From an uncultured virus (IMG/VR IMGVR_UViG_3300012147_000007) (taxonomy: Duplodnaviria > Heunggongvirae > Uroviricota > Caudoviricetes), in IMG/VR virus record IMGVR_UViG_3300012147_000007, positions 1-64,000 of that record: DNA of 64,000 nucleotides. The stretch is one strand, 5' to 3'. Position numbers and translations under genes: made by a program. Shown in pieces: positions 1,703 through 37,056 of the stretch (the stretch's first letter is position 1; every line of letters begins with the position of its first letter). The notes beneath the pieces were generated by a model. It was not told where the DNA came from and did no database searches. It saw nothing but the letters and a program-made list of their open reading frames with translations.

Positions 1703-1774
1703 AGACAGCGAAGGGATTCAAACCCTTATAACCACACTTTGCAGGTGCGTACCTTATCAATCGGCCACGCTGTC
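1703..1774 (-). tRNA. tRNA-Cys (GCA)
   Basis: Cloverleaf GACAGCG/CGCTGTC, loop CT-GCA-AA, U73. Confidence 0.9.
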
Positions 1775-1787
1775 TTATATTTTATTG

Positions 1788-1872
1788 AGGTCAGGGAGGG
1801 ATTCAAACCCCCGATGGGCTTGCGCCTACAGATTTGCAGTCTGTCGTCTTCAATCACTCGAACCACCCGACC
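1788..1872 (-). tRNA. tRNA-Cys (GCA) with long variable arm
   Basis: GGTCGGG/CCTGACC, ACAGA-CTGCAAA-TCTGT, variable arm GGC-GCAA-GCC, U73. Confidence 0.85.
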
Positions 1873-1891
1873 TTATAAAGGGGAAAGTCAA

Positions 1892-2563
1892 TTAAGACCT
1901 TCCACCTTTACAGATTATATCAGCTGCACAAGTTGCAGCCCAAGAGTTAGGCTTAAACCTTACTCTGTATCCTAATCCCTCAAGATGCGCTTTTGCAGCA
2001 GCATAAACAATGTGGGACCTGTTCTTTGGAATACCTGGAGACTTACCTGCTCTGATAAGTTCTTTTTGCCAAGAAGTCCAACCAGCATCTGGGTTAATGT
2101 CAATATCAATATCAACTAACTTGGTTTGGTTTGACTTGTAACCTTTAGCAACAGCTTCTTCTGGTGTCATCCTCTTGTACTTCCCTTCAAGCTCTCTCTC
2201 AAAGTATTCTCCAAGTTCGAAAAGCCTTTCGGTTTCATGCCAGATTCTTTGGAAAATAGATGAAGTCAAATTCTTTCTGTGAAGCTCTTTGTCTTTAACT
2301 TTGTTTCCAGTCTTGCTGAATTTAACTTGGTTACCAGAAATAAGCTCTCTATTGAAAATGTAGTGTACACCGTCATTTCTGTCGTTATCGTAAAACGCTA
2401 CAACATCTGCATACATAATTTTTCTACCATTTCTTCTTACATCAGAGTCGCATCCAATGTAAACAGTTTCTCCTGGAAATTTCTCAATGTGTCCTCTAAC
2501 GTACTCACCAAGGTCAGCAATTATTTCACCTCCAAATTTCTTAAATACTCTTTCTTCCATCAT
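1892..2563 (-). CDS. RNase H-like YkuK/DUF458 family protein
   Basis: VYIGCDS ... RIWHE ... DIDIN ... FKPNSWAATCAAD. Confidence 0.8.
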   Translation of the reverse strand: MMEERVFKKFGGEIIADLGEYVRGHIEKFPGETVYIGCDSDVRRNGRKIMYADVVAFYDNDRNDGVHYIFNRELISGNQVKFSKTGNKVKDKELHRKNLTSSIFQRIWHETERLFELGEYFERELEGKYKRMTPEEAVAKGYKSNQTKLVDIDIDINPDAGWTSWQKELIRAGKSPGIPKNRSHIVYAAAKAHLEGLGYRVRFKPNSWAATCAADIICKGGRS

Positions 2564-2654
2564 TTCTTCTTTTTTTAGTAGTCCTAAAAAGTTGTCAGTT
2601 TTTTCCAGTCTAATTCATCATTATTACTTGTTTTTTGTTTTTAAATTTGCGCAT

Positions 2655-2692
2655 AAAAAAAAGCCCAAACTATTCGAGATAGCTTGAGCTTA
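2655..2692 (-). terminator. Attenuator terminator of Cys leader
   Basis: AAGCTCAAGCTAT...ATAGTTTGGGCTT followed by T run. Confidence 0.85.
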
Positions 2693-2715
2693 AAATTTCT
2701 TTTATTATTATAAAT

Positions 2716-2826
2716 CTACTTCATAACACTCAAACTAACGTTTTTTTTGCAAAACGGACATACCCCTTCCAGGCCGCAATCAATCGCTTGCGAAGTTGGT
2801 CTCCAATATGTCATGTTAGTTTTCAT
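2716..2826 (-). CDS. Leader peptide (3 Cys), putative attenuator of tRNA-Cys unit
   Basis: MKTNMTYWRPTSQAIDCGLEGVCPFCKKNVSLSVMK*; its TAGTTTGAGT can pair with the terminator 5' arm. Confidence 0.8.
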   Translation of the reverse strand: MKTNMTYWRPTSQAIDCGLEGVCPFCKKNVSLSVMK

Positions 2827-2848
2827 CTGTTTATAAATATATTATTTT

Positions 2849-3124
2849 TTATCCAAGCAGCAATCCGCTCTTTTTTTCTTGTTTTTTTGCATCTTTCCAT
2901 TTCCATCCGAGGAAGAATCTGGTACACGCTCTATGAAACCAATTTGGCTTCTTTGTATAGTTGAAGACGATTGAACCTTCTACTTGGTTGCTTCCTGTTA
3001 TATCATATCCTCCAACAACTGGTGGTGGAGTGTATATTTTAACATCTGCAACATCAATTGCTTCATCAATTTCTGGCTTTTTTCTTTCACCAGAATATTC
3101 TTGTTCTTCCCAATATATATTCAT
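2849..3124 (-). CDS. hypothetical protein
   Basis: 91-aa ORF, C-terminal KKPNWFHR...LGWKW motif. Confidence 0.65.
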   Translation of the reverse strand: MNIYWEEQEYSGERKKPEIDEAIDVADVKIYTPPPVVGGYDITGSNQVEGSIVFNYTKKPNWFHRACTRFFLGWKWKDAKKQEKKSGLLLG

Positions 3125-3201
3125 ATTGTAAATATATAAAAATAATATTTAATATCAAATTAATAACCTTTTATTTACGCAGGGACTTATATTATTAATT
3201 G

Positions 3202-3275
3202 TGGGCCCCATCAGACTCGAACTGATAACCTTTTCATTATGAGTGAAATACACTAACCAATTGTGTTAGAGGCCC
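3202..3275 (-). tRNA. tRNA-Ile2-type (CAT)
   Basis: GGGCCTC acceptor, CT-CAT-AA loop; Ile2 rather than Met inferred from acceptor stem. Confidence 0.8.
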
Positions 3276-3285
3276 TTAAATTTTG

Positions 3286-3362
3286 TCGGGAAGGTGAGAT
3301 TCGAACTCACATGTAACCAATTACCCTTTCTACAAGATATAAGCTTGAGGGGATACAACCCG
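3286..3362 (-). ncRNA. D-armless tRNA-like RNA, anticodon TAT (Ile)
   Basis: CGGGTTG-TA-TCCCC-TCAAG-CTTATAT-CTTGT, 21-nt variable region, canonical T arm. Confidence 0.7.
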
Positions 3363-3404
3363 ATACATATGTCTATTTCACTTTCCATTTTATTTATTTT
3401 TTTG

Positions 3405-3502
3405 TGGACAATACGAGAATCGAACTCGTATCTCCAGTTTGCGCTATCCTGTGTGGTTGCACTTCATAGCCTTCACCGATTTACCAATTAATCTAATTGC
3501 CC
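3405..3502 (-). ncRNA. tRNA-like RNA with G3:U70/A73 and expanded anticodon domain
   Basis: GGGCAAT/ATTGTCC-A, normal D and T arms, ~40-nt insert in place of anticodon arm. Confidence 0.7.
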
Positions 3503-3507
3503 TTTTG

Positions 3508-3577
3508 TTGGTGTAGAGGGACTCAAACCCCCGACCCCCTGAATTACAGGTGCTCTAATCAACTGAGCTATACACCG
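3508..3577 (-). ncRNA. tRNA-like RNA with shortened anticodon arm
   Basis: C1:A72 mismatch, normal D/T arms, 13-nt arm CCTG-TAATT-CAGG. Confidence 0.7.
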
Positions 3578-3621
3578 AACTCTTCAATCGCCTTAAGTCG
3601 ATTTCCGAGCTACTTAAGTAG

Positions 3622-3704
3622 TAGTGACGGTGGGAATTGAACCCACTTTGTACTTACGTACCCACGTTATCAGCGTGGTGCCTAAACCATCCAGCCCCGT
3701 CACT
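3622..3704 (-). tRNA. tRNA-Ile (GAT) with long variable arm
   Basis: CCACG-CTGATAA-CGTGG, variable arm GTAC-GTAA-GTAC. Confidence 0.85.
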
Positions 3705-3715
3705 ATAAAAACTCT

Positions 3716-3952
3716 TTAGAAGAGTCTTTCTATTTCAATCCAAGTATAGGAATAAACTCCATTTTGAACTGGTATTCTTTTGCTAATATCCGCTCTTAAC
3801 ACTTTGAACATTGGATACTCTACCAAAAATCTTTCAAGCGCCTCGCTTGGCGTTATCATGTCTCCATCAAAATCAACAAGCCCGCCAACTACTTCCCACT
3901 TGTGTGATTGCCTCCATGTAGTGCAAATACTAAATAAAATATACTCTTCCAT
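3716..3952 (-). CDS. hypothetical protein
   Basis: 78-aa ORF. Confidence 0.6.
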   Translation of the reverse strand: MEEYILFSICTTWRQSHKWEVVGGLVDFDGDMITPSEALERFLVEYPMFKVLRADISKRIPVQNGVYSYTWIEIERLF

Positions 3953-3959
3953 TGCTCTA

Positions 3960-4730
3960 TTAATTCTTTACTTCATCTAAAATATTATATTTTAAACACC
4001 ATTTTCTAACTGTATTATCAGAAACTGCATACTTATTTCCAACCCTTGTAAAATATTTAAATTTTTTAAAATCATCCAATAGAACCATTTTGTTTGGTAT
4101 TCTGCTTTTTCTTTTACAATTATATTCTTTGCACCACTTTTTAATTACACCCAATGAAACCCCTAAGTGTTTAGATAATTCTAAATCACTTTTAAATTTC
4201 GAAAATACCAACACAAATTCTTCTTTATTTATTTTTGGTAAAATATTTATTTCACTAATTACCTTTCCAAGTTTTTCATATTCTCTTTTTATTTTATGAC
4301 ATCTTTTATAATTACCACCTTTAGGGGTTAATCCAGTTTGTATTAATGACTTTCTCATATTCCAGTCATTAATCAACAAATATTCTAATAATTTTTCATT
4401 ACTAATTTTTTCTTTTTTTATTTTATTTCTACCCCTCCAATTACTTGTTAAACCATGGCAGTTTGGACATAGACACTCAAGGTTTGTTTTTTTATTATTT
4501 GTATTATCCCCATCAATGTGATTAATTTCCAAAGGTATATTACACCCTTGCCATTTATTTAATTTACATTTTTTACAAGTTCTTTTATTTTCATATATAA
4601 TATATTCTCTAATCATATCCCAAGATAAATCATCAAAATTTTTACTTAAAATATATTCTTCACGTTTTTTTCTTTCTTCTAAATTATATAACTCCTTTTT
4701 TTCACTAATTCTTAACCACTGACTTGACAT
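3960..4730 (-). CDS. HNH endonuclease with C-terminal HTH
   Basis: LEINHIDGDNTNN..NLECLCPNCH. Confidence 0.9.
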   Translation of the reverse strand: MSSQWLRISEKKELYNLEERKKREEYILSKNFDDLSWDMIREYIIYENKRTCKKCKLNKWQGCNIPLEINHIDGDNTNNKKTNLECLCPNCHGLTSNWRGRNKIKKEKISNEKLLEYLLINDWNMRKSLIQTGLTPKGGNYKRCHKIKREYEKLGKVISEINILPKINKEEFVLVFSKFKSDLELSKHLGVSLGVIKKWCKEYNCKRKSRIPNKMVLLDDFKKFKYFTRVGNKYAVSDNTVRKWCLKYNILDEVKN

Positions 4731-4816
4731 AATATTTGTTTTTTATTATAAATATTATGAAAAAAGTAAAAGTTCGATTTTTTGTTAAATTAATTCGAAC
4801 TTTTACTTTAAATTAG

Positions 4817-4889
4817 TCTCCCCGATAGGACTTGAACCTATTCTCTTTCGATTAAAAGTCGAAGGCTTCCCCTGTTAAGCTACGAGGAG
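4817..4889 (-). tRNA. tRNA-Lys (TTT)
   Basis: TTCGA-CTTTTAA-TCGAA, full cloverleaf. Confidence 0.9.
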
Positions 4890-4905
4890 GTTTTTAATTC
4901 TTTCG

Positions 4906-4977
4906 TGAACCCACCGAGAGTCGAACTCGGTTCCATAGATTAAGAGTCTATAGCATCACCACTAATGCTTTGGGTCC
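4906..4977 (-). tRNA. tRNA-Lys (CTT)
   Basis: ATAGA-CTCTTAA-TCTAT. Confidence 0.9.
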
Positions 4978-5027
4978 AGAATATGTTTATTATCAAGGCC
5001 TGCAACTCTATTGCTTGAGCAAGCCTC

Positions 5028-5063
5028 TTAACGTTTCTTATATTTCATCTTTTTATATTTCAT
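5028..5063 (-). CDS. Lys-rich mini-ORF upstream of tRNA-Lys pair
   Basis: MKYKKMKYKKR* followed by hairpin GAGGCTTGC...GCAGGCCTT. Confidence 0.5.
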   Translation of the reverse strand: MKYKKMKYKKR

Positions 5064-5078
5064 TTTCTTTCTTTTTTG

Positions 5079-5151
5079 AGCTGTTGACAGGGGTCGAACC
5101 TGCGACATCTTCATTACAAGTGAAGTGCTCTACCAACTGAGCTACAACAGC
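5079..5151 (-). tRNA. tRNA-Thr (TGT)
   Basis: CTTCA-CTTGTAA-TGAAG. Confidence 0.92.
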
Positions 5152-5169
5152 ATATTATTATTTTTCTTG

Positions 5170-5242
5170 AGCTGGAGATGGGTCTCGAACCCACAGCCTA
5201 CTGCTTACAAAACAGTCGCACAACCAATCGTGCTCCTCCAGC
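5170..5242 (-). tRNA. tRNA-Thr (TGT)
   Basis: ACTGT-TTTGTAA-GCAGT. Confidence 0.88.
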
Positions 5243-5248
5243 ATTTTA

Positions 5249-5929
5249 TTACCAAGATTTTCCTTCTTTATAATTTTTTCTTCTTCTCTTTCTTCTTCTA
5301 CTATACCTACCATCCCCTTCTGATATAGCTTTCCAACTTTTAGTTAATGCATGATGATTTGGGCATAAAATCTGCAAATTATCTACTTTATTATTATCTG
5401 GATTACAATCTACATGATGCAACTCCAGCGGTATTTTACCTGAATATTTATTTACCTCTTTCCATCCGCACTCCATGCATTTTTCTCCATGTATAGATAT
5501 AAGATAAGTCTTATAAATTTTGGTATGCTCAGTAGTATATTCTCCTTTTTCTATTTTATCAAAAATCTCTTTTCTTTGAAATTCTTGTTGACACTTATTA
5601 TTACAATATTTCTTATTTCCATCTATCTGCTCTTTACAGTTTGTACAATTATTAAACTTTTTTCTTTTTCTATTGTTATAACTCACCCCACATGATTTGC
5701 AACAAAACTTTTTTGGATTAGACTTATTAACTTCAAACCCACATTTACACTCTAAACAACTCCTATCCTCACTACTTGAATTATGTTCTGAAAATTTAAC
5801 TCCAGATTTATTCATTTTATTCCTAACAGAATCAACACTCCTATTTAATTCTTCAGCTATATGATGAAATCTAAACCCATCTATAACAAGCTTTTTAGCT
5901 TTTTCAAACTCTTCTTTGCTCCATTTCAT
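5249..5929 (-). CDS. HNH endonuclease
   Basis: LELHHVDCNPDNN..NLQILCPNHH. Confidence 0.9.
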   Translation of the reverse strand: MKWSKEEFEKAKKLVIDGFRFHHIAEELNRSVDSVRNKMNKSGVKFSEHNSSSEDRSCLECKCGFEVNKSNPKKFCCKSCGVSYNNRKRKKFNNCTNCKEQIDGNKKYCNNKCQQEFQRKEIFDKIEKGEYTTEHTKIYKTYLISIHGEKCMECGWKEVNKYSGKIPLELHHVDCNPDNNKVDNLQILCPNHHALTKSWKAISEGDGRYSRRRKRRRKNYKEGKSW

Positions 5930-6009
5930 ATCTATCTATTTTATAATAAATAGTTAAAAATAATGAGCTTTCAAAATTATTCGAAAACTATACCACTTTC
6001 ATATACCAG

Positions 6010-6083
6010 AGCCTTGTATGGGACTCGAACCCATCTTTCAGACTTACCGAATCTGTACATCAATCCAACAATGCTTACAAGGC
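6010..6083 (-). tRNA. tRNA-Thr (GGT)
   Basis: CAGAT-TCGGTAA-GTCTG (C33). Confidence 0.85.
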
Positions 6084-6109
6084 ATATTTCAAATAACTTT
6101 TACTTTTTG

Positions 6110-6195
6110 GGTGAAAGATGGGTTCTGACCCCACGACCTCCCGATTCACAGTCGGGCGCTCTACGACTTTCGTCTCCAGCTGAGCTACAATCACC
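6110..6195 (-). tRNA. tRNA-His (GTG), D-loop hairpin insertion
   Basis: G-1/C73, CCCGA-CTGTGAA-TCGGG, GAC-GAAA-GTC in D loop, T loop GTCAGAA. Confidence 0.8.
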
Positions 6196-6232
6196 ATATT
6201 AAATTAAAAAGAACTTTTTCTTTTTTTTGTTG

Positions 6233-6306
6233 AGGACCCACCGAGACTCGAACTCGAAATCGCAGATTAACAGTCTGAAGTGATAACCAATTTCACCATA
6301 GGTCCT
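6233..6306 (-). tRNA. tRNA-Asn (GTT)
   Basis: CT-GTT-AA loop, cloverleaf. Confidence 0.88.
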
Positions 6307-6315
6307 TAATTTATT

Positions 6316-6774
6316 TTATTTACTCTTTTCTATTTCTTCATGTATTTCAGCATGACAATTAGAACACACTAAAATACATTTATCTAATTCTTTTTTTACT
6401 TTTTCCCAAGACCTCGTATAACCTTTGTGACCTATACCAAATTCTTTTTCATTTGGGTTTAAATGATGAAACTCTAAAGCTCTACTACATTTATTATACC
6501 CACACCTTTCACAACAACCACCTTTATACTCAATTGACAATTGCTTAACCTTTTTCCTTCTATTTTGAACTGCTTCAACATTTTTCTTTCTTTTATCTTC
6601 TTTTTGAAGGGGTGATAAAGTTCTTTTACTTACATATTCTAACACTGTAGTTTTACTCACTCCAAACTCTTTAGCTACAATCCTTGATGATTTTCCAGAA
6701 TTATACTCTTTTTTAATTAATTTAATTAGTTCTTCACTAATTTTTTTTCCTTTTTTACTTTTTAATTCGTCCAT
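6316..6774 (-). CDS. HNH endonuclease with N-terminal HTH
   Basis: YKGGCCERCGY..ALEFHH..KCILVCSNCH. Confidence 0.9.
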   Translation of the reverse strand: MDELKSKKGKKISEELIKLIKKEYNSGKSSRIVAKEFGVSKTTVLEYVSKRTLSPLQKEDKRKKNVEAVQNRRKKVKQLSIEYKGGCCERCGYNKCSRALEFHHLNPNEKEFGIGHKGYTRSWEKVKKELDKCILVCSNCHAEIHEEIEKSK

Positions 6775-6828
6775 AATATTAACTTTGTTTGTTAAAAAAT
6801 AGGACTAAATTTTTCAAAGCATCACTTG

Positions 6829-6900
6829 CGACTCCAACGGGGCTCGAACCCATAACAAATGATTAACAGTCAAACGTGATACCAATTTCACCATAGAGTC
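6829..6900 (-). tRNA. tRNA-Asn (GTT)
   Basis: GACTCTA/TGGAGTC-G, CT-GTT-AA. Confidence 0.88.
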
Positions 6901-6949
6901 ATATTTCAAATTTTAAGATTCTGAACGTTTCTCAAAAACCTTTGGACAC

Positions 6950-6978
6950 AAAAAAAGCCCGACCTATTGGCCGAGCTT
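6950..6978 (-). terminator. Attenuator terminator of Asn/His/Thr/Lys/Ile leader
   Basis: AAGCTCGGCC-AATA-GGTCGGGCTT plus T run. Confidence 0.9.
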
Positions 6979-7004
6979 CTGTATATTTTAAATTGTACTT
7001 GTGA

Positions 7005-7115
7005 TTAAATTAGTTCATCACTTCCATTTTTGCTTATACATAGCTCGACCATACCATTTTGCTTTTTATTGCAAATCGTATTATTAATCGTTGTATGTAT
7101 ATTTAATGAGTACAT
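7005..7115 (-). CDS. Leader peptide (N/I/H/T/K block), putative attenuator
   Basis: MYSLNIHTTINNTICNKKQNGMVELCISKNGSDELI*; TGGTCGAGCTATGTATA complementary to TATACAGAAGCTCGGCCA. Confidence 0.85.
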   Translation of the reverse strand: MYSLNIHTTINNTICNKKQNGMVELCISKNGSDELI

Positions 7116-7160
7116 TGTGTTTCTTTTTTCTAAATAGTAATTAAAAATTCTTTTTTTGTT

Positions 7161-7232
7161 TTCTTCTACGCAAATATATAACTTTTGTTCTATTAAATCC
7201 AAATCTTTTTTAAAGAAATATTGAAAATAATT
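7161..7232 (-). promoter_or_regulatory. Promoter module shared with 21560-21632
   Basis: Near-identical ~70-bp block containing GAACA-N-TATATTTGCGTAGA. Confidence 0.75.
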
Positions 7233-7671: not shown

Positions 7672-8406
7672 TTAAATAAGTATTTTTTTTGTAATCTCAT
7701 CCCAACGTGCCTCAAGCATTTTGCAATAAGCAATTTTATTTAGTCCATATGCACTAAGACCAAATGCGTCATTCATTTCTATAAGAAGCGTTTTTCCATC
7801 TGCAGTAACTCCGAAATCAATTGAGTAAGCCATTGGCTGAACTGCATAATCTCTTATTGCAGACTCAATAATACTATAATCTGGAGATATAGTAAAGTCC
7901 CCAGTATAATTCTTGCTCCCTATAAGACCTCCATTTAATACAAAACATCTATACTCTGTGACAAAATCAACACATTCTGACACTATCAAAGGAGTGTTCG
8001 GATTGCATCTAAGCTTCGCTTGCAACAAGTCATGCTTTGATTTAACTACATAACCAGTAAACAACTTATGCTGATATAGCGGCTTTATAAAGAAAGGAAA
8101 AGCTCCTTCTGTTTTAGAATATTCTTCAACATCTTTAAATTCCATTTCAAAAACTTTTCTTCCCATATATTCTGGAAGGTGGTGATGCGGATTATCTATC
8201 CTTGGCTGAAGTATGTGAAGCTCATCAAATATTTTTCTGATTGTATTGATTCCTCCTACAACAATTGGGTTTGTACTATGATTAATTTCCTCTGAATTTT
8301 CAAAACCAATCACTCTATATCCCATTTGCCCAAAACCAGCAGCGGCTTCATAACAGTTAACGCTTAAGAATTTATTCCCAGCTCTTTGTATATAGACTTC
8401 TCTCAT
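7672..8406 (-). CDS. ATP-grasp protein (DUF4343/R2K-like)
   Basis: FFIKP..KLFTG, EYRCFV, YSIDFG...LLIEMND. Confidence 0.85.
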   Translation of the reverse strand: MREVYIQRAGNKFLSVNCYEAAAGFGQMGYRVIGFENSEEINHSTNPIVVGGINTIRKIFDELHILQPRIDNPHHHLPEYMGRKVFEMEFKDVEEYSKTEGAFPFFIKPLYQHKLFTGYVVKSKHDLLQAKLRCNPNTPLIVSECVDFVTEYRCFVLNGGLIGSKNYTGDFTISPDYSIIESAIRDYAVQPMAYSIDFGVTADGKTLLIEMNDAFGLSAYGLNKIAYCKMLEARWDEITKKILI

Positions 8407-12869: not shown

Positions 12870-12921
12870 AACCTATCTGTTTAAAGATAAATAGTACAAA
12901 AAAGTACAAAATCGACTAAGG

Positions 12922-12992
12922 GAATCCATACGGGATTCGAACCCGTGCCTCCTGCCGAAAGGCAAGCGCTCTATCCGCTGAGCTAATGGACA
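12922..12992 (-). ncRNA. tRNA-like RNA, anticodon loop reduced
   Basis: Arg-like D arm, arm CTTGCC-TTTC-GGCAGG, canonical T arm. Confidence 0.7.
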
Positions 12993-13076
12993 CATCACCT
13001 TAATATCGTTCTACTAAAACTATCTTCAGGCTCCATTCACAACATTAGTAGGGTTGCTTCAGGACTTTTTTTAAAG

Positions 13077-13176
13077 TGGCGAAGGGAGGATTCGAAACCT
13101 CCGACCCCCAATGCTGTCCATTCTTTCACAAGAACAACTAACACACTGGTGCTCTGACCAACTGAGCTACCTCGCC
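13077..13176 (-). ncRNA. Met-like tRNA body with elongated anticodon arm
   Basis: GGCGAGG/CTTCGCC-A; ~42-nt arm capped by TTCTT-GTGA-AAGAA. Confidence 0.75.
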
Positions 13177-18106: not shown

Positions 18107-18163
18107 AATTAAACAATCCTACCAAAATCTCTTTTACCAACTTTCATTATTTGACTCCGCATG

Positions 18164-18237
18164 TACCGATGAAGGGTTTCGAACCCTAAGCCTTATCCTT
18201 ATGAGGGATACGTACTAACCTATTATACGACATCGGC
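18164..18237 (-). tRNA. tRNA-Met (CAT)
   Basis: TATCC-CTCATAA-GGATA. Confidence 0.85.
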
Positions 18238-18272
18238 ATGTGATGGATTGATAGCTCCATCGGGCATTTTCC

Positions 18273-19360
18273 TTATGAGAATCCATTGTTCTTCTTCCAC
18301 TGCTCATGCTTTTGCTCAACACTATACATGAAAGAACCTCCTGGAATTACCTTCGCATCTGGGAATCCGTTTTCTGTTGTCAAAACAGATTCTGATTCTT
18401 TTATTGCACCAGTAAACTTTCCAGCACCTTTCTTATTTTCAATATTACCTGTTGAAGGATTGTATTAAAATTAATTTTTACTTTTTTTAGTTTATTTATT
18501 AATAAACCAAATATGAAACCTAAATATACAAACGAACAACTTAAACATGCTAAGTCTTTTGATAAATTACCATTAGAATGTTATGAATGTAATAAAGATT
18601 TTTTTATAGCAAAGACGCACATCAAAGATGCTAAAAATCCAAATTGCAAAAGAACTGGTGAATTTTGCTCAAAACAATGTTTGTCTTTATCAAAAAAAAC
18701 AAAAGCTAAATATAATTGTCATAACTGCGGAAAAGAATGTGAAAAAAAGATTTCTCAAATAAAACTATCAAAATCAGGTTATAATTTTTGCTCAAGGAGC
18801 TGCACATCATCTTATCATATGAAAAACAAAAAATACGGCACAAATAGGTCTAAATTAGAACAGTGGATTGAAATTCAATTAACAAAATTATACCCAAATC
18901 TTAAAATATCTTATAATGACAGGCAAATTTTAAATCCTTTGGAATTAGATATATTTATCCCAGAATTGTCAATAGCATTTGAATTAAACGGCATTTTTCA
19001 TTATGAACCCATATTTGGACCTGAAAAGCTAAATAAAACTCAAACTAAAGATTTCAACAAACACAAACTTTGCTTTGATAAAAGGGTGGATTTATGTGTA
19101 ATTGACACATCAAGTCAAAAATATTTTAAAGAACAGACATCTAATAAGTTTTTAAATATAATTATAAAAATTATTCAAGAAAGATTTTAATTCTATGTAA
19201 CTTATTTGAACAAATAATCCGTTCTAACACCACCCTTAGGCTCAATAAACTCTACCATATAAGACTGTTCAGTTCCATCATTCATATGAACAATCAAGTT
19301 ACCAGTTTCATCTCGGTTCACTAAAAAATTCTTTCTCACCTCTTCTCTCTTGTCTTTCAT
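18273..19360 (-). pseudogene. Hypothetical gene split by an opposite-strand endonuclease
   Basis: 5' half 19202-19360 (MKDKREE...GGVRTD), startless 3' half 18273-18464 (YNPSTGNIENKKGAGKFTG...). Confidence 0.65.
18513..19190 (+). CDS. Zn-finger + PD-(D/E)XK-like homing endonuclease
   Basis: FCSRSC, RSKLE, ELDIFIP..AFELNGIFHY; paralog of 43994-44695. Confidence 0.85.
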   Translation: MKPKYTNEQLKHAKSFDKLPLECYECNKDFFIAKTHIKDAKNPNCKRTGEFCSKQCLSLSKKTKAKYNCHNCGKECEKKISQIKLSKSGYNFCSRSCTSSYHMKNKKYGTNRSKLEQWIEIQLTKLYPNLKISYNDRQILNPLELDIFIPELSIAFELNGIFHYEPIFGPEKLNKTQTKDFNKHKLCFDKRVDLCVIDTSSQKYFKEQTSNKFLNIIIKIIQERF

Positions 19361-19406
19361 GACTTTTGTTTTTAAAATTATATTTTATTTCATTATCGAA
19401 CAAATG

Positions 19407-19480
19407 AGCAGGTAGACGGGATTGAACCGTCTCTATTCCAGATTGGAAATCTGGCGCACCACCATTTATGCGTTACCTGC
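19407..19480 (-). tRNA. tRNA-Gly (TCC)
   Basis: CCAGA-TTTCCAA-TCTGG, U73. Confidence 0.9.
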
Positions 19481-19485
19481 GTTTG

Positions 19486-19640
19486 TGGACATGGGAGGAA
19501 TTAAACCCAAGACGTAAATCTCGCTTACTTTGCTCCTGAAATGACTAATGCGCACTTATCAATTCACTCACGTTTCAACCCTTAGCTTTCTTAGCACCAA
19601 CACCAAAGTTGGGACGGTTCATCTCACCGCAAGCATATCC
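19486..19640 (-). ncRNA. 155-nt RNA with tRNA-like ends
   Basis: GGATATG/CATGTCC-A, degenerate T arm, GCTTGC/GTAAGC stem enclosing several hairpins. Confidence 0.55.
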
Positions 19641-19675
19641 ATATTTGCCTATTTATAGTCGTAGCAAGGACTTTG

Positions 19676-19748
19676 AGCGAAATGTGGGAATCGAACCCCG
19701 TCTTCTCCTTGGAAGGGAGACGCTTTCAGCCATTAAGCTACATCTCGC
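19676..19748 (-). tRNA. tRNA-Gly (TCC), possible 8/4 fold
   Basis: GCGAGATG/CATTTCGC, TCTCC-CTTCCAA-GGAGA, short T stem. Confidence 0.8.
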
Positions 19749-19953
19749 ATATGGAGTCATTTATACACAGCTCCTGAGTGTTTATTTTACTTATTAAGAT
19801 TTTTTAATTTATCTTTCTTATTGTCCTCTTGGGTAATTCTTAATCTTGCTGCGAAGTCCATTTGTGAAATTAGTTTTTTAATCCTATCAGGGTCTTCATT
19901 TTCTTTATTTTTCATAGTTTGGTTTTTAACAATATTATAGCCTTCAACTTTTG

Positions 19954-20037
19954 TGGGGGTGGTTGGATTCGAACCAACTCAGACCTATGCCAATGGTGTT
20001 ACAGACCATCCCAACTCTCCAACTTTGGCGCACCCCC
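19954..20037 (-). tRNA. tRNA-Tyr (GTA)
   Basis: ATGGT-CTGTAAC-ACCAT, long variable arm. Confidence 0.88.
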
Positions 20038-20163
20038 AGTTTACGAAATTTCTTTTATTTTCAGTTTGCGGATTTCGTAATCCCATTTCTGCTATTCTTA
20101 ATTTGTCAGGGAACAAAGCACTGACAAACGTCTTGTCTGAATTGTAAAATTCATTTCCCTTAG

Positions 20164-20236
20164 TGGAGGTGGTCGAAATCGAATCGACCTCAGGAACATT
20201 GCAAATGTTTCTCGCCAGCCTTGGACATGCACCCCC
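20164..20236 (-). tRNA. tRNA-Ala (TGC)
   Basis: G3:U70, TT-TGC-AA. Confidence 0.85.
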
Positions 20237-20296
20237 ATTGCGCTATGGTGGAAAGTACTTTCCTATGGTTACCATAACTTATTTATCCGCTTTTTG

Positions 20297-20374
20297 TGGA
20301 GAAATAGGGAGTTTAACCCAGTTCAGTCGCTCCGCTAAGCTGTTACACAACATTAACTGAATACTTAAATCTCC
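20297..20374 (-). ncRNA. Degenerate tRNA-like RNA
   Basis: GGAGA/TCTCC-A ends, GGGTTAAACTCCC T-like arm, TTCAGTT/GACTGAA stem. Confidence 0.45.
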
Positions 20375-20375
20375 A

Positions 20376-20893
20376 TTATTTATTATTTTTCATAATTTCA
20401 AAGTACTTCTGATTCCTCAATCTTTTTTTCTTGTCGATTCTATTTCTAAAATCTTTAAGAAGAGGTTCTGGAATCTGGATGCCCCTCTTTTGGAACTCTC
20501 CTAATATTTCTTCCTCTGTAAATGTCCAGTCGCAAATTCCATCGCTCCACTGGTCCACCCAAAGACCAAAACTTCTTTTTCCACTCATTACAGCTTTGAC
20601 GATATTCGGATGTCTTGTCCTTATCACTGTATTCCTCTTGATGTCTCCGTTTTCAACTTGCCTAAAGCAATATTTACCTTCTTCACCATTTGGGTCAAAC
20701 TCAGTTTCTATTATTGAGCCTGAGAATTCTAATAACCCACTTCTATAGCTCTTAAGAAAAAATATAAACATTTCATTGAAGTTATCAGAATATTTTCTAA
20801 GCTTCCTGTTTTTTCTACTTCCTACTTTCTTTTTTTGCTCATCAAGCCTACTTAACTTCTGGCTCCCAAGCGGTGTTCTCCTTGCTCTTTCAT
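20376..20893 (-). CDS. hypothetical protein (start probably frameshifted in an A run)
   Basis: Long ORF; nearest ATG at 20893 is one base out of frame. Confidence 0.6.
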
Positions 20894-20930
20894 TTTTTCT
20901 AAATTTATAAATTAATTTAACATTACCCAG

Positions 20931-21003
20931 CGGTCCCGAACGGATTCGAACCGTCAACCATCTCGCAGACAACGAGCTACACTACCAATTGTGCTACGGG
21001 ACC
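20931..21003 (-). tRNA. tRNA-Asp (GTC)
   Basis: TT-GTC-TG loop, G73. Confidence 0.85.
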
Positions 21004-21009
21004 TTATTG

Positions 21010-21083
21010 TCTAAGTGACAGGGGTCGAACCTGCGGCCTGAGCGCCCCAAACGCCCCACTCTACCAAACTGAGCTACACCTAG
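21010..21083 (-). tRNA. tRNA-Pro (TGG)
   Basis: C1:G72, TT-TGG-GG. Confidence 0.9.
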
Positions 21084-21091
21084 ATATTTTG

Positions 21092-21167
21092 CGGTCTATA
21101 CGGTTTTCGAATCCGTCTGATATTCCTCCGTGACAGGGAGGTGGACACCCAAGCATCCCCATAGACC
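21092..21167 (-). tRNA. tRNA-Asp (GTC)
   Basis: CCTCC-CTGTCAC-GGAGG, G73. Confidence 0.85.
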
Positions 21168-21178
21168 ATTTTTTTAAG

Positions 21179-21254
21179 TCTGATGAGCTGGATTTGAACC
21201 AACGTGCTGCAATTTCCAAAATTGCCGAGATAAGCCTGACTCCTCTATCACCAG
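21179..21254 (-). tRNA. tRNA-Pro (TGG), A37
   Basis: GCAAT-TTTGGAA-ATTGC. Confidence 0.85.
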
Positions 21255-21331
21255 ATATTTTACTTTAATTTCCAAGATGTCAATTTTTTACTTTCGAAAG
21301 ACTCAGTGACGTTTCACAAAAGTCTATAAAC

Positions 21332-21365
21332 AAAAAAAGCTCGGTCCTTTTTGGAACCGAGCTTT
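21332..21365 (-). terminator. Attenuator terminator of Pro/Asp/Ala/Tyr/Gly/Met leader
   Basis: AAAGCTCGGTTCC-AAAAA-GGACCGAGCTTTTTTT. Confidence 0.9.
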
Positions 21366-21391: not shown

Positions 21392-21511
21392 TCAAACTTT
21401 AAGTTTATGCAAAACGATTCCGTCCCTGCTGCAATCATCTGCCGCTGGCGCCCCCATATAGCCCATCGGGTTAATTGAAGTGTTCTCGTTATATGTATAA
21501 ACTTTTTCCAT
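21392..21511 (-). CDS. Leader peptide (PMGYMGAPAADD block), putative attenuator
   Basis: MEKVYTYNENTSINPMGYMGAPAADDCSRDGIVLHKLKV*. Confidence 0.85.
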   Translation of the reverse strand: MEKVYTYNENTSINPMGYMGAPAADDCSRDGIVLHKLKV

Positions 21512-21646
21512 TTGAATTTGTTTCTCTTTTTTCTAAATAGCAGAAAATTTCTTTTTCCGCTTTCTTCTACGCAAATATATAACATTTGTTCTATTAAATC
21601 CAAATCTTTTTTAAAGAAATATTGAAAATAATTTTGAACCTCTTGA

Positions 21647-27742: not shown

Positions 27743-28546
27743 CTATTTTCTGTTCATAAATTCATATCCATACCACTTATACTTGCTGTAATCAACAAGT
27801 TCTGCAGGCTTCCAGGTTTTTGTCCAGTGCTCATCAGTTTTAACGTGACCCTGGCGAACCAGTTTGAACAAATTGTTGAATTCGTTATGATGCACGTCAA
27901 GAACTCCAGCGTTTCTACTATCGTATCCTTCAATGTTTCTAATCACAAATCCTTCAGATGAGTCAGCTCCAGTATCAAGGTCGTATCCACCAAGCAACCC
28001 TGGAGTATCAACACTTTCAACCCAAGTCATTCCCAGATTCTCTTTTAACCAATTGTCAAGCAAAACATCTTCATCAACATCATCACGATAAAAATCTTTC
28101 AATGTTGTTTTAATAGGAATCACTGGAACCGTTGGAAAATCAAACATGGCAGCGTAGAACTGGACTTCCTCCCAAGATAACCACTTGCCATTTTCTCTGG
28201 CAGCGAATACATAATAATAAGATTCAAGATTCTTGTAAGCAACAGAGTGAATTCCATACATGTTCTCGCCAAACAATTCAAGCTTACCAAGGTCATTTTT
28301 AATCAACTCCCAGCGTTCACGCATTGGCTTATCCCAAGGATGTGCTGTTGGAGTAACATGACTTCTGGCAAATACTCCTTCTTTTTTGAAGTGGTTATTT
28401 TGTCCATCAAGCTTTTCTGTCATTACAAGCTCTGGCATTTCAGCAAAAGCCTTGACGTAACCCTTAGGCATGAAGCGGTCATCAGATGTCGTTCCGAGCG
28501 AAATCTTTGCATGAAGGCATCTTCCATATTTATCCTAGCTACTCAT
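27743..28546 (-). CDS. RNA ligase (Rnl2-like) with in-frame TAG at codon 4
   Basis: TEKLDG, FGE, EGFV; ATG 28546 coupled to upstream stop (TAATG); MSS*DKYGRCLH..GTTSDD. Confidence 0.85.
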
Positions 28547-28734
28547 TATTTTAACTTTTTCTTAATCCTACAAAGTTCGAGATATACCTCTTCAACCTCT
28601 TCTATAAATTCATCACTATAATCTCCGCTTCCCCATGTTTCTGGGTCCAGAAATTCTCTTAAATCCTTAACAGCATCACGAACATTAGCTCTGACACTTT
28701 CTATTTTCTCATCTGCTGTTGTAGTTGCACTCAT
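28546..28734 (-). CDS. hypothetical protein
   Basis: 62 aa, translationally coupled on both sides. Confidence 0.7.
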   Translation of the reverse strand: MSATTTADEKIESVRANVRDAVKDLREFLDPETWGSGDYSDEFIEEVEEVYLELCRIKKKLK

Positions 28735-29201
28735 CTTCTTATTCCTTTTTTGTATAATTTATAACTATTCTCTACATATAGATAATCGTAGTTGTCAAGG
28801 CACCTATAAAGATTCGTTCTCAGAATATTTATATCATACTTGAAGTGTTCTTCGATTCCTCTGGTTATGTCATCAATTATAACAAAATAATCAACATCAT
28901 TATCGTCAATCCAGTGCTGAATTTCATCAGCTCTTCCATTGTCAAGTTCTGGTGTTAACCCGATTACTTCAGCTTCAATTCCTCTTTTTTTGAATAGGTC
29001 TTGAAATACTTCTAAGCTTCTCGTTTTTCTCCAGGTTGATGAAACTACAATCTTACCATCAATGTGATTGGTTATTTTATTTAATGCATCAATTGCTGCA
29101 GGTTCAAAAAGGTGACCATCAACATCTCTATTTTCTGTTGAGTTTCCCATCTTTAACCAAGAAGCCAACACTCCGTCTATATCTAAAAATACTATATTCA
29201 T
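28731..29201 (-). CDS. HAD phosphatase (Swiss-Army-knife RNA repair-like)
   Basis: FLDIDGVL, IVVSSTWR, R.DEI..W, FVIIDD. Confidence 0.85.
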   Translation of the reverse strand: MNIVFLDIDGVLASWLKMGNSTENRDVDGHLFEPAAIDALNKITNHIDGKIVVSSTWRKTRSLEVFQDLFKKRGIEAEVIGLTPELDNGRADEIQHWIDDNDVDYFVIIDDITRGIEEHFKYDINILRTNLYRCLDNYDYLYVENSYKLYKKGIRR

Positions 29202-32455: not shown

Positions 32456-32457
32456 GT

Positions 32458-33207: not shown

Positions 33208-33261
33208 AATGCAAATGTATAGTTTTTAATTAAGGAAAATTACCTACTAAACCATGTTTTT

Positions 33262-33531: not shown

Positions 33532-33588
33532 ATAATAATATAATAAAAAATATATTTATAATCAAGAACTTCTTTGCGCATATGGCGG

Positions 33589-34293: not shown

Positions 34294-34328
34294 ATCTATA
34301 TTTTATAATAAATAGTGTTAAAATTTAA

Positions 34329-34377
34329 AAAGCCTCCAAACACGCTATGTGTTGATATAACGTGTTTGGAGGCTTTT
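34329..34377. terminator. Long inverted repeat after tRNA-Trp
   Basis: AAAAGCCTCCAAACACG...CGTGTTTGGAGGCTTTT. Confidence 0.75.
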
Positions 34378-34378
34378 G

Positions 34379-34456
34379 CGCAGATGTCAGGATTCGAACC
34401 CGAACAGAATTAACACGGGGTTGGAATCCGCTTAGCTCACCAATGCATGCACCTGC
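34379..34456 (-). tRNA. tRNA-Trp (CCA)
   Basis: GCGGA-TTCCAAC-CCCGT, G73. Confidence 0.8.
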
Positions 34457-34488
34457 GTATATTTTGTGACCGAGGGAGGACTCAAACA

Positions 34489-34986
34489 TTAATCAATTAT
34501 CCCTCCATGTATTTCTCTATGACAATTTGAACATACTAAAATGCATTTATCTAATTCTTTTTTTACAGAATCAGTTAATTTTAAAAGTTTAATTCCACCC
34601 AGTTGAAAATCTTTTTCTTTCGGGTCGAGATGATGAAATTCCAATGCTCCACAATATTTATCATATCCGCACTTTTCACAACACCCTCCTTTATATTTAA
34701 CTGCAATAATTTTAAACCCCCTTTGCCTTTCAACTGTTTGCTCGTTAGTACAAGGCTTGCAATATGATGATGCTCCAGCCTTTCCTTTTCTTTGATAAAA
34801 TTCTACCAACTTCTTTTCTTTGCTACATCTCGGACACACTCTTTCTGTTTTTTCTCTGCTCTTACTTTTTAATTCATACTTCTTAAGCCAATACCTAATT
34901 GTAGTCTGACTTAAATTAAATTCATAACCCATTTGTCTTGTGGTCATTTTTTTATCAACCGACTTTTTTAACAACTCTTTTTCCAT
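34489..34986 (-). CDS. HNH endonuclease
   Basis: ALEFHHLDP..KCILVCSNCH; paralog of 6316-6774. Confidence 0.9.
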   Translation of the reverse strand: MEKELLKKSVDKKMTTRQMGYEFNLSQTTIRYWLKKYELKSKSREKTERVCPRCSKEKKLVEFYQRKGKAGASSYCKPCTNEQTVERQRGFKIIAVKYKGGCCEKCGYDKYCGALEFHHLDPKEKDFQLGGIKLLKLTDSVKKELDKCILVCSNCHREIHGGIID

Positions 34987-35036
34987 ACTAATAAATATGA
35001 AAAAAAAATATTATTTCATTTTGAGCTATAACTCTG

Positions 35037-35110
35037 AGGCCTTAGCGAGATTCGAACTCGCAACCTTTTGTTTAGGAAACAAAAACTCTGTCCAGTTGAG
35101 CTACAAGGCC
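35037..35110 (-). tRNA. tRNA-Arg (CCT)
   Basis: TT-CCT-AA, A20. Confidence 0.88.
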
Positions 35111-35113
35111 AAG

Positions 35114-35197
35114 TGATGCAAGCAAGCCAGGTTCTGCTCCTGGTTCCGCCTAAGCGGTATGCTCTGATGAACGTTCTTTTACAACATTACTCACATC
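35114..35197 (-). ncRNA. Multi-arm small RNA with 11-bp closing stem
   Basis: GATGTGAGTAA/TTGCTTGCATC, CCGC-TTAG-GCGG, CCAGG-AGCAGAA-CCTGG. Confidence 0.55.
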
Positions 35198-35199
35198 TT

Positions 35200-35282
35200 T
35201 GGTACACCAGGCGGGATTCCAACCCACATTTTCAGCTGCAATTACGGATAGCAATTTAGAAAAATGCCTCGGCTACTGGTGC
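35200..35282 (-). ncRNA. D-armless tRNA-like RNA, anticodon TCT (Arg), encoded CCA
   Basis: GCACCAG-TA-GCCGAG-GCATT-TTTCTAA-ATTGC, 23-nt variable region, T arm, ACCA. Confidence 0.65.
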
Positions 35283-35304
35283 TTATTTTTATAACTTTAT
35301 TTTT

Positions 35305-35878
35305 CTAAATATCTTTTTTTCTTGCAGAATTTTTATTCTTTGATTTATATGTATCTAACTGTGAATCGCAATTAGGACAAATTAATCGTAAATTATTTCT
35401 TAAATTATTACCAGCATCTCCATCTATATGGTCTAAAATAAAAACAATTTCCTTATCATTCCAAGTATTGGAATTATTACATATATCACATCTATTTTCT
35501 TGTTCTTTTAATATGTGAGATTTAATAAAATGCATATTTCTAACATAACAAAAATCACTTTGATTATTTAAGTAATTTTCATAAAATTTATTCTTTTTAT
35601 ATTTTTTTTCACATATTTTACCACAAAACTTTTGATTATAATGAGTTGTTAATTTAAACTCTTCATTACAATTAAGACAGTTTACCTCTTTTTTTATTCC
35701 TTTATTATGTGGCACATGCTCAGAATTAAACTTCTTTCTTTTTCTCTAACACAATACCTAATTTAATAGCATTTCTCCTTATTGTTGTATCAGAAACTTT
35801 ATATTTTTTAGCCACTTCAGTATAAGATAATTTTTCAACTATAATTAACTGATATAATTCTTCTTTATTGTATTTCAT
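35305..35878 (-). CDS. HNH endonuclease (frameshift in A run near 35740)
   Basis: LDHIDGDAGNN..NLRLICPNC; HTH N-terminus in adjacent frame. Confidence 0.8.
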
Positions 35879-35975
35879 ATTATAATTTTATTATAAATAT
35901 AAATATTTTTAACAAACCGATTACTAATGATAAATTGTTTTACACCTATGCATAATCGACTTGCAAACATATATG

Positions 35976-36049
35976 TGACTCCGATAGGATTCGAACCTAT
36001 AACCGTCAGGGTAGAAACCTGATGCGCTATCCAGTTGCGCCACGGAGCC
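35976..36049 (-). tRNA. tRNA-Arg (TCT)
   Basis: TCAGG-TTTCTAC-CCTGA, A20. Confidence 0.92.
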
Positions 36050-36055
36050 ATTTTG

Positions 36056-36142
36056 CGGAAGTAATGGGGCTCGAACCCATGCACCCCTTGCGGGGCCTAA
36101 TAACTTTCCAAGCTATCCTCTTTACCATTTGAGTATACTTCC
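36056..36142 (-). tRNA. tRNA-Ser (GGA)
   Basis: TT-GGA-AA, long variable arm, G73. Confidence 0.9.
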
Positions 36143-36149
36143 ATTAATA

Positions 36150-36241
36150 TGGCGGAGAGAGAGAGATTCGAACTCTCGATACCAGTTTCCCAGTATAACA
36201 CCTTAGCAGGGTGCCGCCTTCAACCACTCGGCCACCTCTCC
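36150..36241 (-). tRNA. tRNA-Ser (GCT)
   Basis: CT-GCT-AA, long arm, CCA. Confidence 0.93.
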
Positions 36242-36250
36242 GTATTTTTG

Positions 36251-36323
36251 TGGATTCAGCAGGATTTGAACCTGCAACCAACCCCTTTGCAAGAGCCGCT
36301 CTATCCAGTTGAGCTATGAATCC
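36251..36323 (-). ncRNA. Arg-like tRNA body with GCAA-capped anticodon arm
   Basis: A20 D loop; 18-nt arm GGCTCTT-GCAA-AGGGGTT. Confidence 0.7.
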
Positions 36324-36345
36324 AAGGGAACCATGTCTTCCCTCT

Positions 36346-36433
36346 TGGCGGTAGATATGGGGTTCGAACCCATGTTCCCTTTCGGGGCTACCTGTTTAGC
36401 AAACAGGCCTCTTTACCATTTGAGTAACCTACC
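36346..36433 (-). tRNA. tRNA-Ser (GCT)
   Basis: CCTGT-TTGCTAA-ACAGG, long arm, CCA. Confidence 0.9.
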
Positions 36434-36438
36434 AGTTG

Positions 36439-36520
36439 CACGGGGGTGAGGATTCGAACCTCACTCATCTTAAGGGAGCGACCCCTCAGATTTCCAGTGT
36501 AGCTACACTTCAAACCCCGT
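36439..36520 (-). ncRNA. tRNA-like RNA without canonical D/anticodon arms
   Basis: ACGGGG/CCCCGT, GTGAGG-TTCGAAT-CCTCAC, two tetraloop arms. Confidence 0.6.
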
Positions 36521-36528
36521 GTATATTG

Positions 36529-36617
36529 CGGAGGCGGCAGGATTCGAACCTGCGGACCCCTTTCAGGGCCACTGCTTTTCAAGAGCAGCGCAATAAACCA
36601 GACTCTGCCACGCCTCC
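36529..36617 (-). tRNA. tRNA-Ser (TGA)
   Basis: CT-TGA-AA, long arm. Confidence 0.93.
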
Positions 36618-36622
36618 GTATT

Positions 36623-36790
36623 TCAATTTTCTTCTTTATAACGTTTTATAAAGAACTCTCTTAATTCTTCCTTCCTTTTAATTGATGCCTTGATTCTCGC
36701 CACCTTTTCTGGAGAAGGGTCTGTATCAACTGTAAATTTGATTCCATTTTTCTCACAATAATCTGTCATTTCTTCAAAACAATTTTCCAT
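36623..36790 (-). CDS. hypothetical protein
   Basis: MENCFEEM... small ORF between tRNAs. Confidence 0.55.
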   Translation of the reverse strand: MENCFEEMTDYCEKNGIKFTVDTDPSPEKVARIKASIKRKEELREFFIKRYKEEN

Positions 36791-36804
36791 CTTTCTATTT
36801 TTTG

Positions 36805-36892
36805 CGGAGGGAGAGGGGGTCAAACCCTCAAGGCCGTTAAGCTCGCTGGGGTTCAAAACCAGTGCAGTCGTCTACTTTCTGCTTGCCCCTCC
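36805..36892 (-). tRNA. tRNA-Ser (TGA)
   Basis: TT-TGA-AC, long arm. Confidence 0.85.
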
Positions 36893-36906
36893 GTATTTTT
36901 TGGCAC

Positions 36907-36941
36907 AAAAAAAACCCTAATTCAAAAAGAACCAGGGTTTC
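36907..36941 (-). terminator. Attenuator terminator of Ser/Arg/Trp leader
   Basis: AAACCCTGGTTC-TTTTT-GAATTAGGGTTT plus T run. Confidence 0.88.
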
Positions 36942-36963
36942 AAATATTTTTATAACAGTATCG

Positions 36964-37056
36964 TTACATAACATTTTGACATACCAGTGTTCTTTCCGTA
37001 GCTCTATTCGAACTCGAACTCCATCTGGACCATCTATTTGTTATTACTGTTTTCAT
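36964..37056 (-). CDS. Leader peptide (RWSRWSSSSNR block), putative attenuator
   Basis: MKTVITNRWSRWSSSSNRATERTLVCQNVM*. Confidence 0.88.
   Translation of the reverse strand: MKTVITNRWSRWSSSSNRATERTLVCQNVM

Follow-up and report, generated by a model that had tools for sequence, protein, structure and literature searches.

Leader-headed tRNA operons in the window

The DNA analysed here, positions 1 to 64,000 of IMG/VR record IMGVR_UViG_3300012147_000007 from an uncultured virus (hereafter the window), covers the first 64 kb of a phage contig of 117 kb (35% G+C) and contains tRNA operons that begin with a promoter, a short leader open reading frame (ORF) and an intrinsic terminator placed ahead of the tRNA genes. 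The window genes and all 29 tRNAs detected by ARAGORN lie on the minus strand, as do the promoters, leaders, terminators and tRNA operons located below. A sequence-only reading had proposed that a promoter, a 30-39 amino acid ORF, a terminator and then tRNA genes head four clusters. This arrangement is real for three of the four units (L2, L3 and L4), which share a promoter and have strong terminators, but breaks down for the fourth, a Cys unit (L1), which lacks the shared promoter core and has a gene before its tRNAs.

In L2, a two-box promoter of the Bacteroidota type (7171..7203), whose core is common to L3 and L4, precedes a 36-codon leader ORF (7005..7115) with a 14-codon run for Asn, Ile, His, Thr, Cys and Lys; a candidate antiterminator strand (7041..7052, ORF bases 64-75) starts approximately 12 bases past this codon block, and the intrinsic terminator (6953..6980) is the top-ranked site in the terminator scan. 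L3 comprises a promoter (21572..21604), a 39-codon leader ORF (21392..21511) with a 12-codon run for Pro, Met, Gly, Tyr, Ala and Asp, and a terminator (21336..21365). The L4 promoter (37220..37251) is separated from its 30-codon leader (36964..37056) by an extra 38-codon ORF (37084..37200), which has a composition unlike that of the operon and is missing in a distant relative described below; the leader itself contains an 11-codon block, nine codons of which specify Arg, Trp or Ser, with one Cys codon later, and is followed by a terminator (36911..36941) located 12-18 bases 5′ of the first tRNA-Ser-like gene.

These three units are built to a common plan. A 16-base promoter core occurs in exactly three copies in the 117-kb contig, only at L2, L3 and L4, and L2 and L3 share approximately 110 nearly identical bases, comprising the promoter and 5′ leader, up to the start codon, after which they diverge. 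The leader ORFs begin 40-60 bases past the shared promoter in L2 and L3 and behind the extra ORF in L4, end 22-26 bases before the terminator in all three, and are followed by terminators that rank first, second and fourth across two terminator scans. From terminator to first tRNA the distance is 55 bases in L2, 83 in L3 and 12-18 in L4. A six-base A/T motif lies 8-40 bases 5′ of the start codon in every leader (for example, upstream of the leader starts at 7130-7137, 21533-21540 and 37065-37072) and also precedes 27 of 93 long ORFs; its role may lie in translation initiation or in a promoter specific to the phage.

The tRNA genes behind these leaders form operon 2 (3201..6900; Asn ×2, His, Thr ×3, Lys ×2, Ile, a Met/Ile2-type and several odd tRNAs, interspersed with homing-endonuclease-like ORFs), operon 3 (18163..21254; Pro ×2, Asp ×2, Ala, Tyr, Gly ×2 and Met, where membership of the Met tRNA, located past plus-strand ORFs, is uncertain) and operon 4 (34328..36892; Ser ×6, Cys, Arg ×2 and a weak Trp-like tRNA), the last closed by a strong terminator (34329-34376). 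A disputed tRNA-His (6110-6194), with anticodon GUG by Rfam alignment, is confirmed as real. Three further genes were called by ARAGORN at a lowered threshold: a tRNA-Ala with a G3:U70 pair (20163-20236), an odd tRNA-Ser (36804-36892), and the tRNA-Trp-like gene with a CCA anticodon (34378-34456), which scores 24 bits in Rfam, below the cut-off, and whose position matches that of two good tRNA-Trp genes in the distant relative.

Codon content of the leaders in this and other phages

Two further units of the same phage, found after the hypothesis was set, lie outside the window on a near-identical 195-kb IMG/VR record that represents the same phage (its own completeness estimate is 78%). L5 has a close variant of the promoter, a 34-codon ORF in which 20 of 33 residues are Leu, Phe, Arg, Gln or Val, and a terminator behind which follow, in order, tRNAs for Phe, Val, Leu, Arg, Leu and Leu. 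In L6 the 26-codon ORF includes an uninterrupted run of seven Gln codons, and behind it come a terminator and, from 18 bases on, four tRNA-Gln genes. The distances of 12-18 bases from terminator to tRNA in L4 and L6 leave no room for a separate promoter, so that the tRNAs there need read-through. A variant of the tRNA promoter also occurs directly before a tRNA-Leu without any leader ORF or terminator (G001 139266-139383; L121:4266-4383); the Gln leader comes after this promoter-proximal tRNA-Leu, suggesting that attenuators can also be internal to tRNA transcripts. Taken together, the six modules lack a tRNA for Glu alone and cover 19 of 20 amino acids.

The match between leader and downstream tRNAs is far beyond chance. 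Among 628 ATG-initiated ORFs of 20-70 codons, taken from all six frames of the whole contig, the longest run of residues drawn from a unit's own tRNA set is found in its own leader for each of the three window units: 14 residues in L2 versus 11 for the next best ORF, 12 versus 5 in L3, and 9 versus 6 in L4, which bears out the earlier claim that a mid-ORF codon block mirrors the downstream tRNA set. When each leader is scored against every set, the own set gives the best score for six of six leaders of the whole phage, and only one of 720 set permutations, the true assignment itself, reaches the observed total. The agreement extends to codons, as nearly all those for the set amino acids can be read by anticodons of the same unit (L1, 3/3; L2, 17/19; L3, 15/16; L4, 12/12; L5, 18/20; L6, 7/7), and the five block Ser codons of L4 cover all three Ser anticodon types.

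The same design recurs in other phages. In the distant relative (a 154-kb record, with a neighbouring protein 52% identical), in which the L3-L6 counterparts were examined, operon order is kept and five leaders are present whose sequences differ from ours and whose composition matches the tRNAs behind them: the own set is best in four of the five, one of 120 permutations reaches the total, and the fifth operon is truncated at the contig end. Two clear units and a weaker third are also present in a cultured phage from a different genus, Cellulophaga phage phi4:1. One of the clear units has a 22-codon ORF with an 11-residue run that consists entirely of amino acids carried by the seven tRNAs behind it (Pro, Glu, Gln, His, Leu, Leu, Arg), and the other a 27-codon ORF in which 23 of 26 residues belong to the set of the next eleven. 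The phi4:1 leader 5′ of the first tRNA (L283:8868-8936; NC_021788.1) has no annotation, while the annotated start of gp075 (L283, NC_021788.1, 9792-9911) falls within a promoter-like repeat, the real leader likely being an in-frame GTG-initiated ORF (L283:9828-9911). We also considered annotated gp076 of phi4:1 as a leader and rejected it (4 of 32 residues in the set and no terminator); a better candidate is another ORF, located upstream of tRNA-Tyr.

The Cys unit is a weaker member of the series. Its leader-like ORF (2716..2826; 36 codons) and terminator (2661..2691) precede a YkuK/DUF458 RNase H-like gene (1892-2563) and two tRNA-Cys genes (1787-1872 and 1702-1774), the whole cargo spanning 1702..2563. 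The sequence-only reading had this leader matching its two Cys tRNAs; the ORF is indeed conserved in relatives, but with just three scattered Cys codons the match is weaker than stated. Searching with the single protein returned the same phage only, and related loci were instead found through an alignment of RNase H-like homologues. In 16 of the 23 loci so obtained, some of which are identical to one another, a closely similar ORF (31-37 codons, two conserved Cys codons) and a terminator precede the RNase H-like gene. In more distant relatives a tRNA-Leu lies directly behind the Cys-type terminator and the leaders are rich in Leu and Cys, so that leader content co-varies with cargo. Such covariation of leader codons with tRNA cluster content had been proposed as a check on the idea, and is seen among these Leu/Cys-type leaders.

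Searches by sequence motif were less productive. Scanning IMG/VR with a 15-base promoter core gave 111 loci, four of which have the extended promoter, all near-identical to the window, and scanning for leaders with the shared ORF-start motif gave 119 loci, 48 regular-expression matches and 26 short ORFs, none with a tRNA within 400 bases. The same script that detects the units here found no terminator-then-tRNA unit in coliphage T5 (23 tRNAs). The L4 region was also compared with contigs of four DNA sequencing runs: in two runs, two contigs retain 37008-37280 and have 36917-37007 swapped for 93 unlike letters, and one run gave no matching contig. All were of low depth, and we do not use them as evidence.

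RNA structure and a candidate attenuation mechanism

The clearest structural evidence comes from L2, whose ORF is conserved in seven relatives. In an alignment of the seven L2-type leaders from these relatives, 97.6% of 84 cells in the terminator helix are paired, a value reached by none of 500 shuffles, and two pairs are changed on both sides. A nine-pair antiterminator joins the terminator 5′ arm to a strand inside the ORF that lies approximately 12 bases past the codon block; 95.2% of its 63 cells are paired, again with two pairs changed on both sides, and slid registers reach at most 54%. Compensatory base changes, suggested earlier as something to look for in relatives, are thus present in both of these competing helices. 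RNAalifold further predicts a conserved hairpin in which the codon block pairs with the antiterminator strand, and the single-sequence fold of L5 shows a helix between the same two elements. Together these three helices reproduce the arrangement of the trp attenuator (1:2, 2:3 and 3:4). The pattern of conservation in the L2 family indicates constraint on codons and RNA rather than on the peptide, since DNA identity in the 5′ part of the ORF (86-90%) exceeds that of the neighbouring gene (58-73%); in the 3′ part of the ORF plus spacer it is 47-80%.

Pairing between the terminator 5′ arm and the ORF was assessed by duplex energy against 300 shuffles per unit. No shuffle reaches the L2 duplex (-18.0 kcal/mol), and the counts are 9 for L1, 12 for L6 and 18 for L5, as well as 1, 1, 1, 2 and 3 for the five units of the distant relative, 5 for the Cys/Leu-type unit of a third relative (G003), and 10 and 32 for the two phi4:1 units; in all, 18 or fewer shuffles match the duplex in 11 of the 14 units tested. 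The earlier claim of a segment complementary to the terminator 5′ arm in each of the four leaders therefore stands for L2 and, more modestly, for L1 (as does the pairing in L5 and L6), and is no better than chance for L3 (104 of 300) and L4 (84 of 300). The counterparts of L3 and L4 in the distant relative have clean eight-pair antiterminators.

Taken together, these features lead us to regard the units as probable ribosome-mediated (leader-peptide) transcription attenuators ahead of phage tRNA operons, a reading drawn from sequence comparison. Under this model, a host-type promoter would start transcription and the short leader ORF, with its block of codons read by the operon's own tRNAs, would be translated. 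Fast decoding of the block would let the terminator form and stop RNA polymerase 5′ of the tRNA genes, whereas a shortage of matching charged tRNA would stall the ribosome in the block and free the antiterminator strand just downstream, which would pair with the terminator 5′ arm and allow the tRNA block to be transcribed. The new tRNAs would relieve the stall, closing a negative feedback loop. We infer leader translation, conditional read-through, the direction of the switch and the cause of the shortage from this arrangement. Such a sensor would respond alike to any shortage of decoding capacity, and its trigger could be tRNA cleavage by host defences, a mismatch between phage codon use and the host tRNA pool, host shut-off or starvation.

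The proposed mechanism has close parallels among characterized systems. Enterobacterial multivalent attenuators include the thr leader, which senses Thr and Ile, and the ilv leaders, which sense Ile, Leu and Val. Like these, the phage units combine a short leader whose control codons specify several amino acids with an intrinsic terminator and, most clearly in the L2 family, predicted antiterminator and anti-antiterminator helices that exclude each other, and the geometry is also similar, with the antiterminator strand starting approximately 12-15 bases past the block. Unlike them, the phage units would regulate tRNA genes rather than biosynthetic enzymes, and because the regulated product is itself a tRNA, the signal would be relieved by the product, as a feedback on tRNA supply; they also belong to a phage, occur as four to six modules per genome, and would operate in a host that presumably belongs to the Bacteroidota and lacks Shine-Dalgarno sites. 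The Escherichia coli pheST attenuator, with its pheM leader, similarly controls a component of the translation machinery through decoding of matching codons, but regulates an aminoacyl-tRNA synthetase for one amino acid, whereas tRNA genes for many are at stake here. T-box riboswitches likewise sense tRNA status and choose between terminator and antiterminator, but they bind uncharged tRNA directly and have no ORF, and Rfam T-box and curated leader families gave no match in the leader regions at gathering score, nor at E ≤ 0.05 over bases 1-45000. For L1, a closer likeness may be the mycobacterial polycysteine short ORFs, short ORFs whose Cys codons make them attenuators that respond to Cys; those ORFs are reported (bioRxiv 10.1101/834739) to be leaderless, to have consecutive Cys codons and to control operon mRNAs, whereas in L1 the two to three Cys codons are separated and the genes behind it are an RNase H-like gene and tRNA-Cys. 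The trp/his/pheST-type layout envisaged in the sequence-only reading is thus upheld by the match in composition that recurs in other units and phages and by the mutually exclusive helices of the L2 family, but not by L3 and L4, whose antiterminators are no better than shuffles, nor fully by the weaker Cys unit.

Several observations weigh against attenuation, or against its extension to every unit. The window copies of L3 and L4 lack a convincing antiterminator, by the duplex counts given above. In the L2 family the covariation counts rest on seven sequences only, and the anti-antiterminator hairpin is invariant and so gains no support from covariation. The codon blocks include out-of-set residues, such as Asn in L4, and in L1 the Cys codons are few and dispersed (3 of 35 residues), with the 223-codon RNase H-like gene separating the terminator from both tRNA-Cys genes. 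L2, L3 and L5 have 55-83 bases with conserved small hairpins between terminator and first tRNA, a gap in which a second promoter or a processing role is possible. Three tRNA groups of the window (12920-13176, 43326-43937 and 44752-44828) have no such leader. Lastly, the model depends on translation and transcription being sufficiently closely coupled in the presumed host.

The gap hairpins form a distinct pattern of their own. Two small conserved hairpins occupy the terminator-to-tRNA spacer: the first has a nearly constant four-base loop on a 5-10-pair stem whose letters are unit-specific, and the second a GNRA-type tetraloop, with a conserved A/T-rich stretch then directly 5′ of the tRNA. 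They occur at 6901-6952 and 21255-21335 of the window (minus strand) and at further loci (L121:517-573; L133:5819-5900; L139:5886-5949; L141:793-861; L143:6270-6340; L126:7592-7656), and are missing where the terminator-to-tRNA distance is 12-18 bases. These hairpins may be a processing or folding signal.

Genome context, alternative readings and significance

The phage is also present on a 364-kb metagenome contig, and the sequencing runs that contain it are lake and salt-lake metagenomes. Its host is presumed to belong to the Bacteroidota, on the basis of two signals that both fit such a host: the two-box promoter pattern of the Bacteroidota type (consensus from general knowledge) occurs at 20 sites on the coding strand, against 4-6 in controls and a simulated mean of 4.0, and the sequence 5′ of start codons is rich in A and poor in G. 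Homing endonucleases are among the neighbouring genes. An RNA ligase adjoins a HAD domain of ‘Swiss army knife’ RNA-repair proteins (27743-28471 and 28731-29201, minus strand), and two R2K ATP-grasp proteins are encoded directly upstream of tRNA regions (7672-8406 and 23557-24375, minus strand); these four suggest an RNA or tRNA repair tool-kit.

Beyond the 32 tRNAs it recognizes in the window, Rfam identifies one GOLLD RNA, which is full-length and lies between tRNA clusters (11174-11600, minus strand; 169 bits against a gathering score of 150). Many tRNA-like genes are odd (3285-3577, 6110-6194, 12920-13176, 35200-35282 and 43326-43686, minus strand): they have weak arms, an anticodon called with two bases, or insertions of 9-74 bases in the D loop or anticodon loop, and may represent tRNAs that contain introns, are degenerate or act as decoys. 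The window also has a tRNA of the amber suppressor type (anticodon CUA; 43865-43937, minus strand), with an equivalent in the distant relative. This tRNA led us to consider stop-codon recoding, an idea that we rejected since the ORFs of the contig become hardly any longer when TAG is taken as a sense codon.

What such units are for, and whether they are attenuators at all, can be argued in other ways. The same hardware might be specific to defence, detecting host tRNA cleavage by anticodon nucleases and switching on nuclease-resistant phage replacements. Some viruses are reported to encode tRNAs to counter tRNA-cleaving immunity (PMC12409363), and the RNA ligase and HAD repair domain encoded in the window make tRNA damage a plausible pressure. 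We nevertheless consider so narrow a role unlikely, as nuclease damage is not separable here from codon-usage mismatch, host shut-off or starvation, as units for 19 of 20 amino acids extend far beyond known nuclease targets (general knowledge), and as no defence or anti-defence gene is linked to the units. A second alternative reverses the sign of the switch: a ribosome close behind RNA polymerase would suppress the terminator, such that tRNA blocks are made when their own codons are decoded well. Ribosomes near a terminator are reported to be able to suppress it (PMC4824070), and the distance from the leader stop codons to the terminator stems is only 21-31 bases; these 21-31 bases nonetheless exceed the reach of a ribosome on the stop codon (judged from footprint size, general knowledge), the L2-family layout, in which the codon block pairs with the antiterminator strand, agrees with a classical switch induced by stalling, and positive coupling gives no reason for module-wise codon matching, so that we judge it improbable. 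Finally, that small ORF and terminator are separate small genes or small-RNA units, with the tRNAs made from other promoters and the match a by-product, seems highly improbable, for although the 55-83 bases in L2, L3 and L5, with the conserved elements there, allow another promoter, the idea leaves unexplained the own-set matches (6/6, 1/720; 4/5, 1/120), the units with 9-18 bases from terminator to tRNA, and the conservation of the codon-block half of the ORF only.

Stall-induced attenuation of tRNA operons, the reading we favour, invites a broader and more tentative proposal. The tRNA arrays of Bacteroidota phages might be modular, self-sensing systems for decoding capacity, with six modules in this phage, each switched on by stalling on its own codons, and might serve mainly to replace, when needed, host tRNAs that anticodon nucleases have destroyed or that disappear after host shut-off; as a whole, this is a possibility that we hold with some doubt.

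Classical leader-peptide attenuators regulate genes for amino-acid biosynthesis or aminoacyl-tRNA synthetases. The cargo of the units described here consists instead of tRNA genes, small ORFs and homing endonucleases, which places them outside any described operon class, and we found no account of leader-peptide attenuation of tRNA genes in the full-text literature searched, a body of work in which subscription journals are mostly not included. If correct, this would be the first case of tRNA genes under translation-coupled attenuation, a feedback from decoding speed to tRNA supply and a natural multi-codon sensor of translation capacity. It would bear on the open question of why phages carry tRNA genes and how their control works, and testable predictions follow on the timing of phage tRNA synthesis; as the design is present in the cultured pair of phi4:1 and Cellulophaga baltica, it can be tested at the bench now. 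It also offers a reading for the numerous small ‘hypothetical’ ORFs annotated within phage tRNA arrays.

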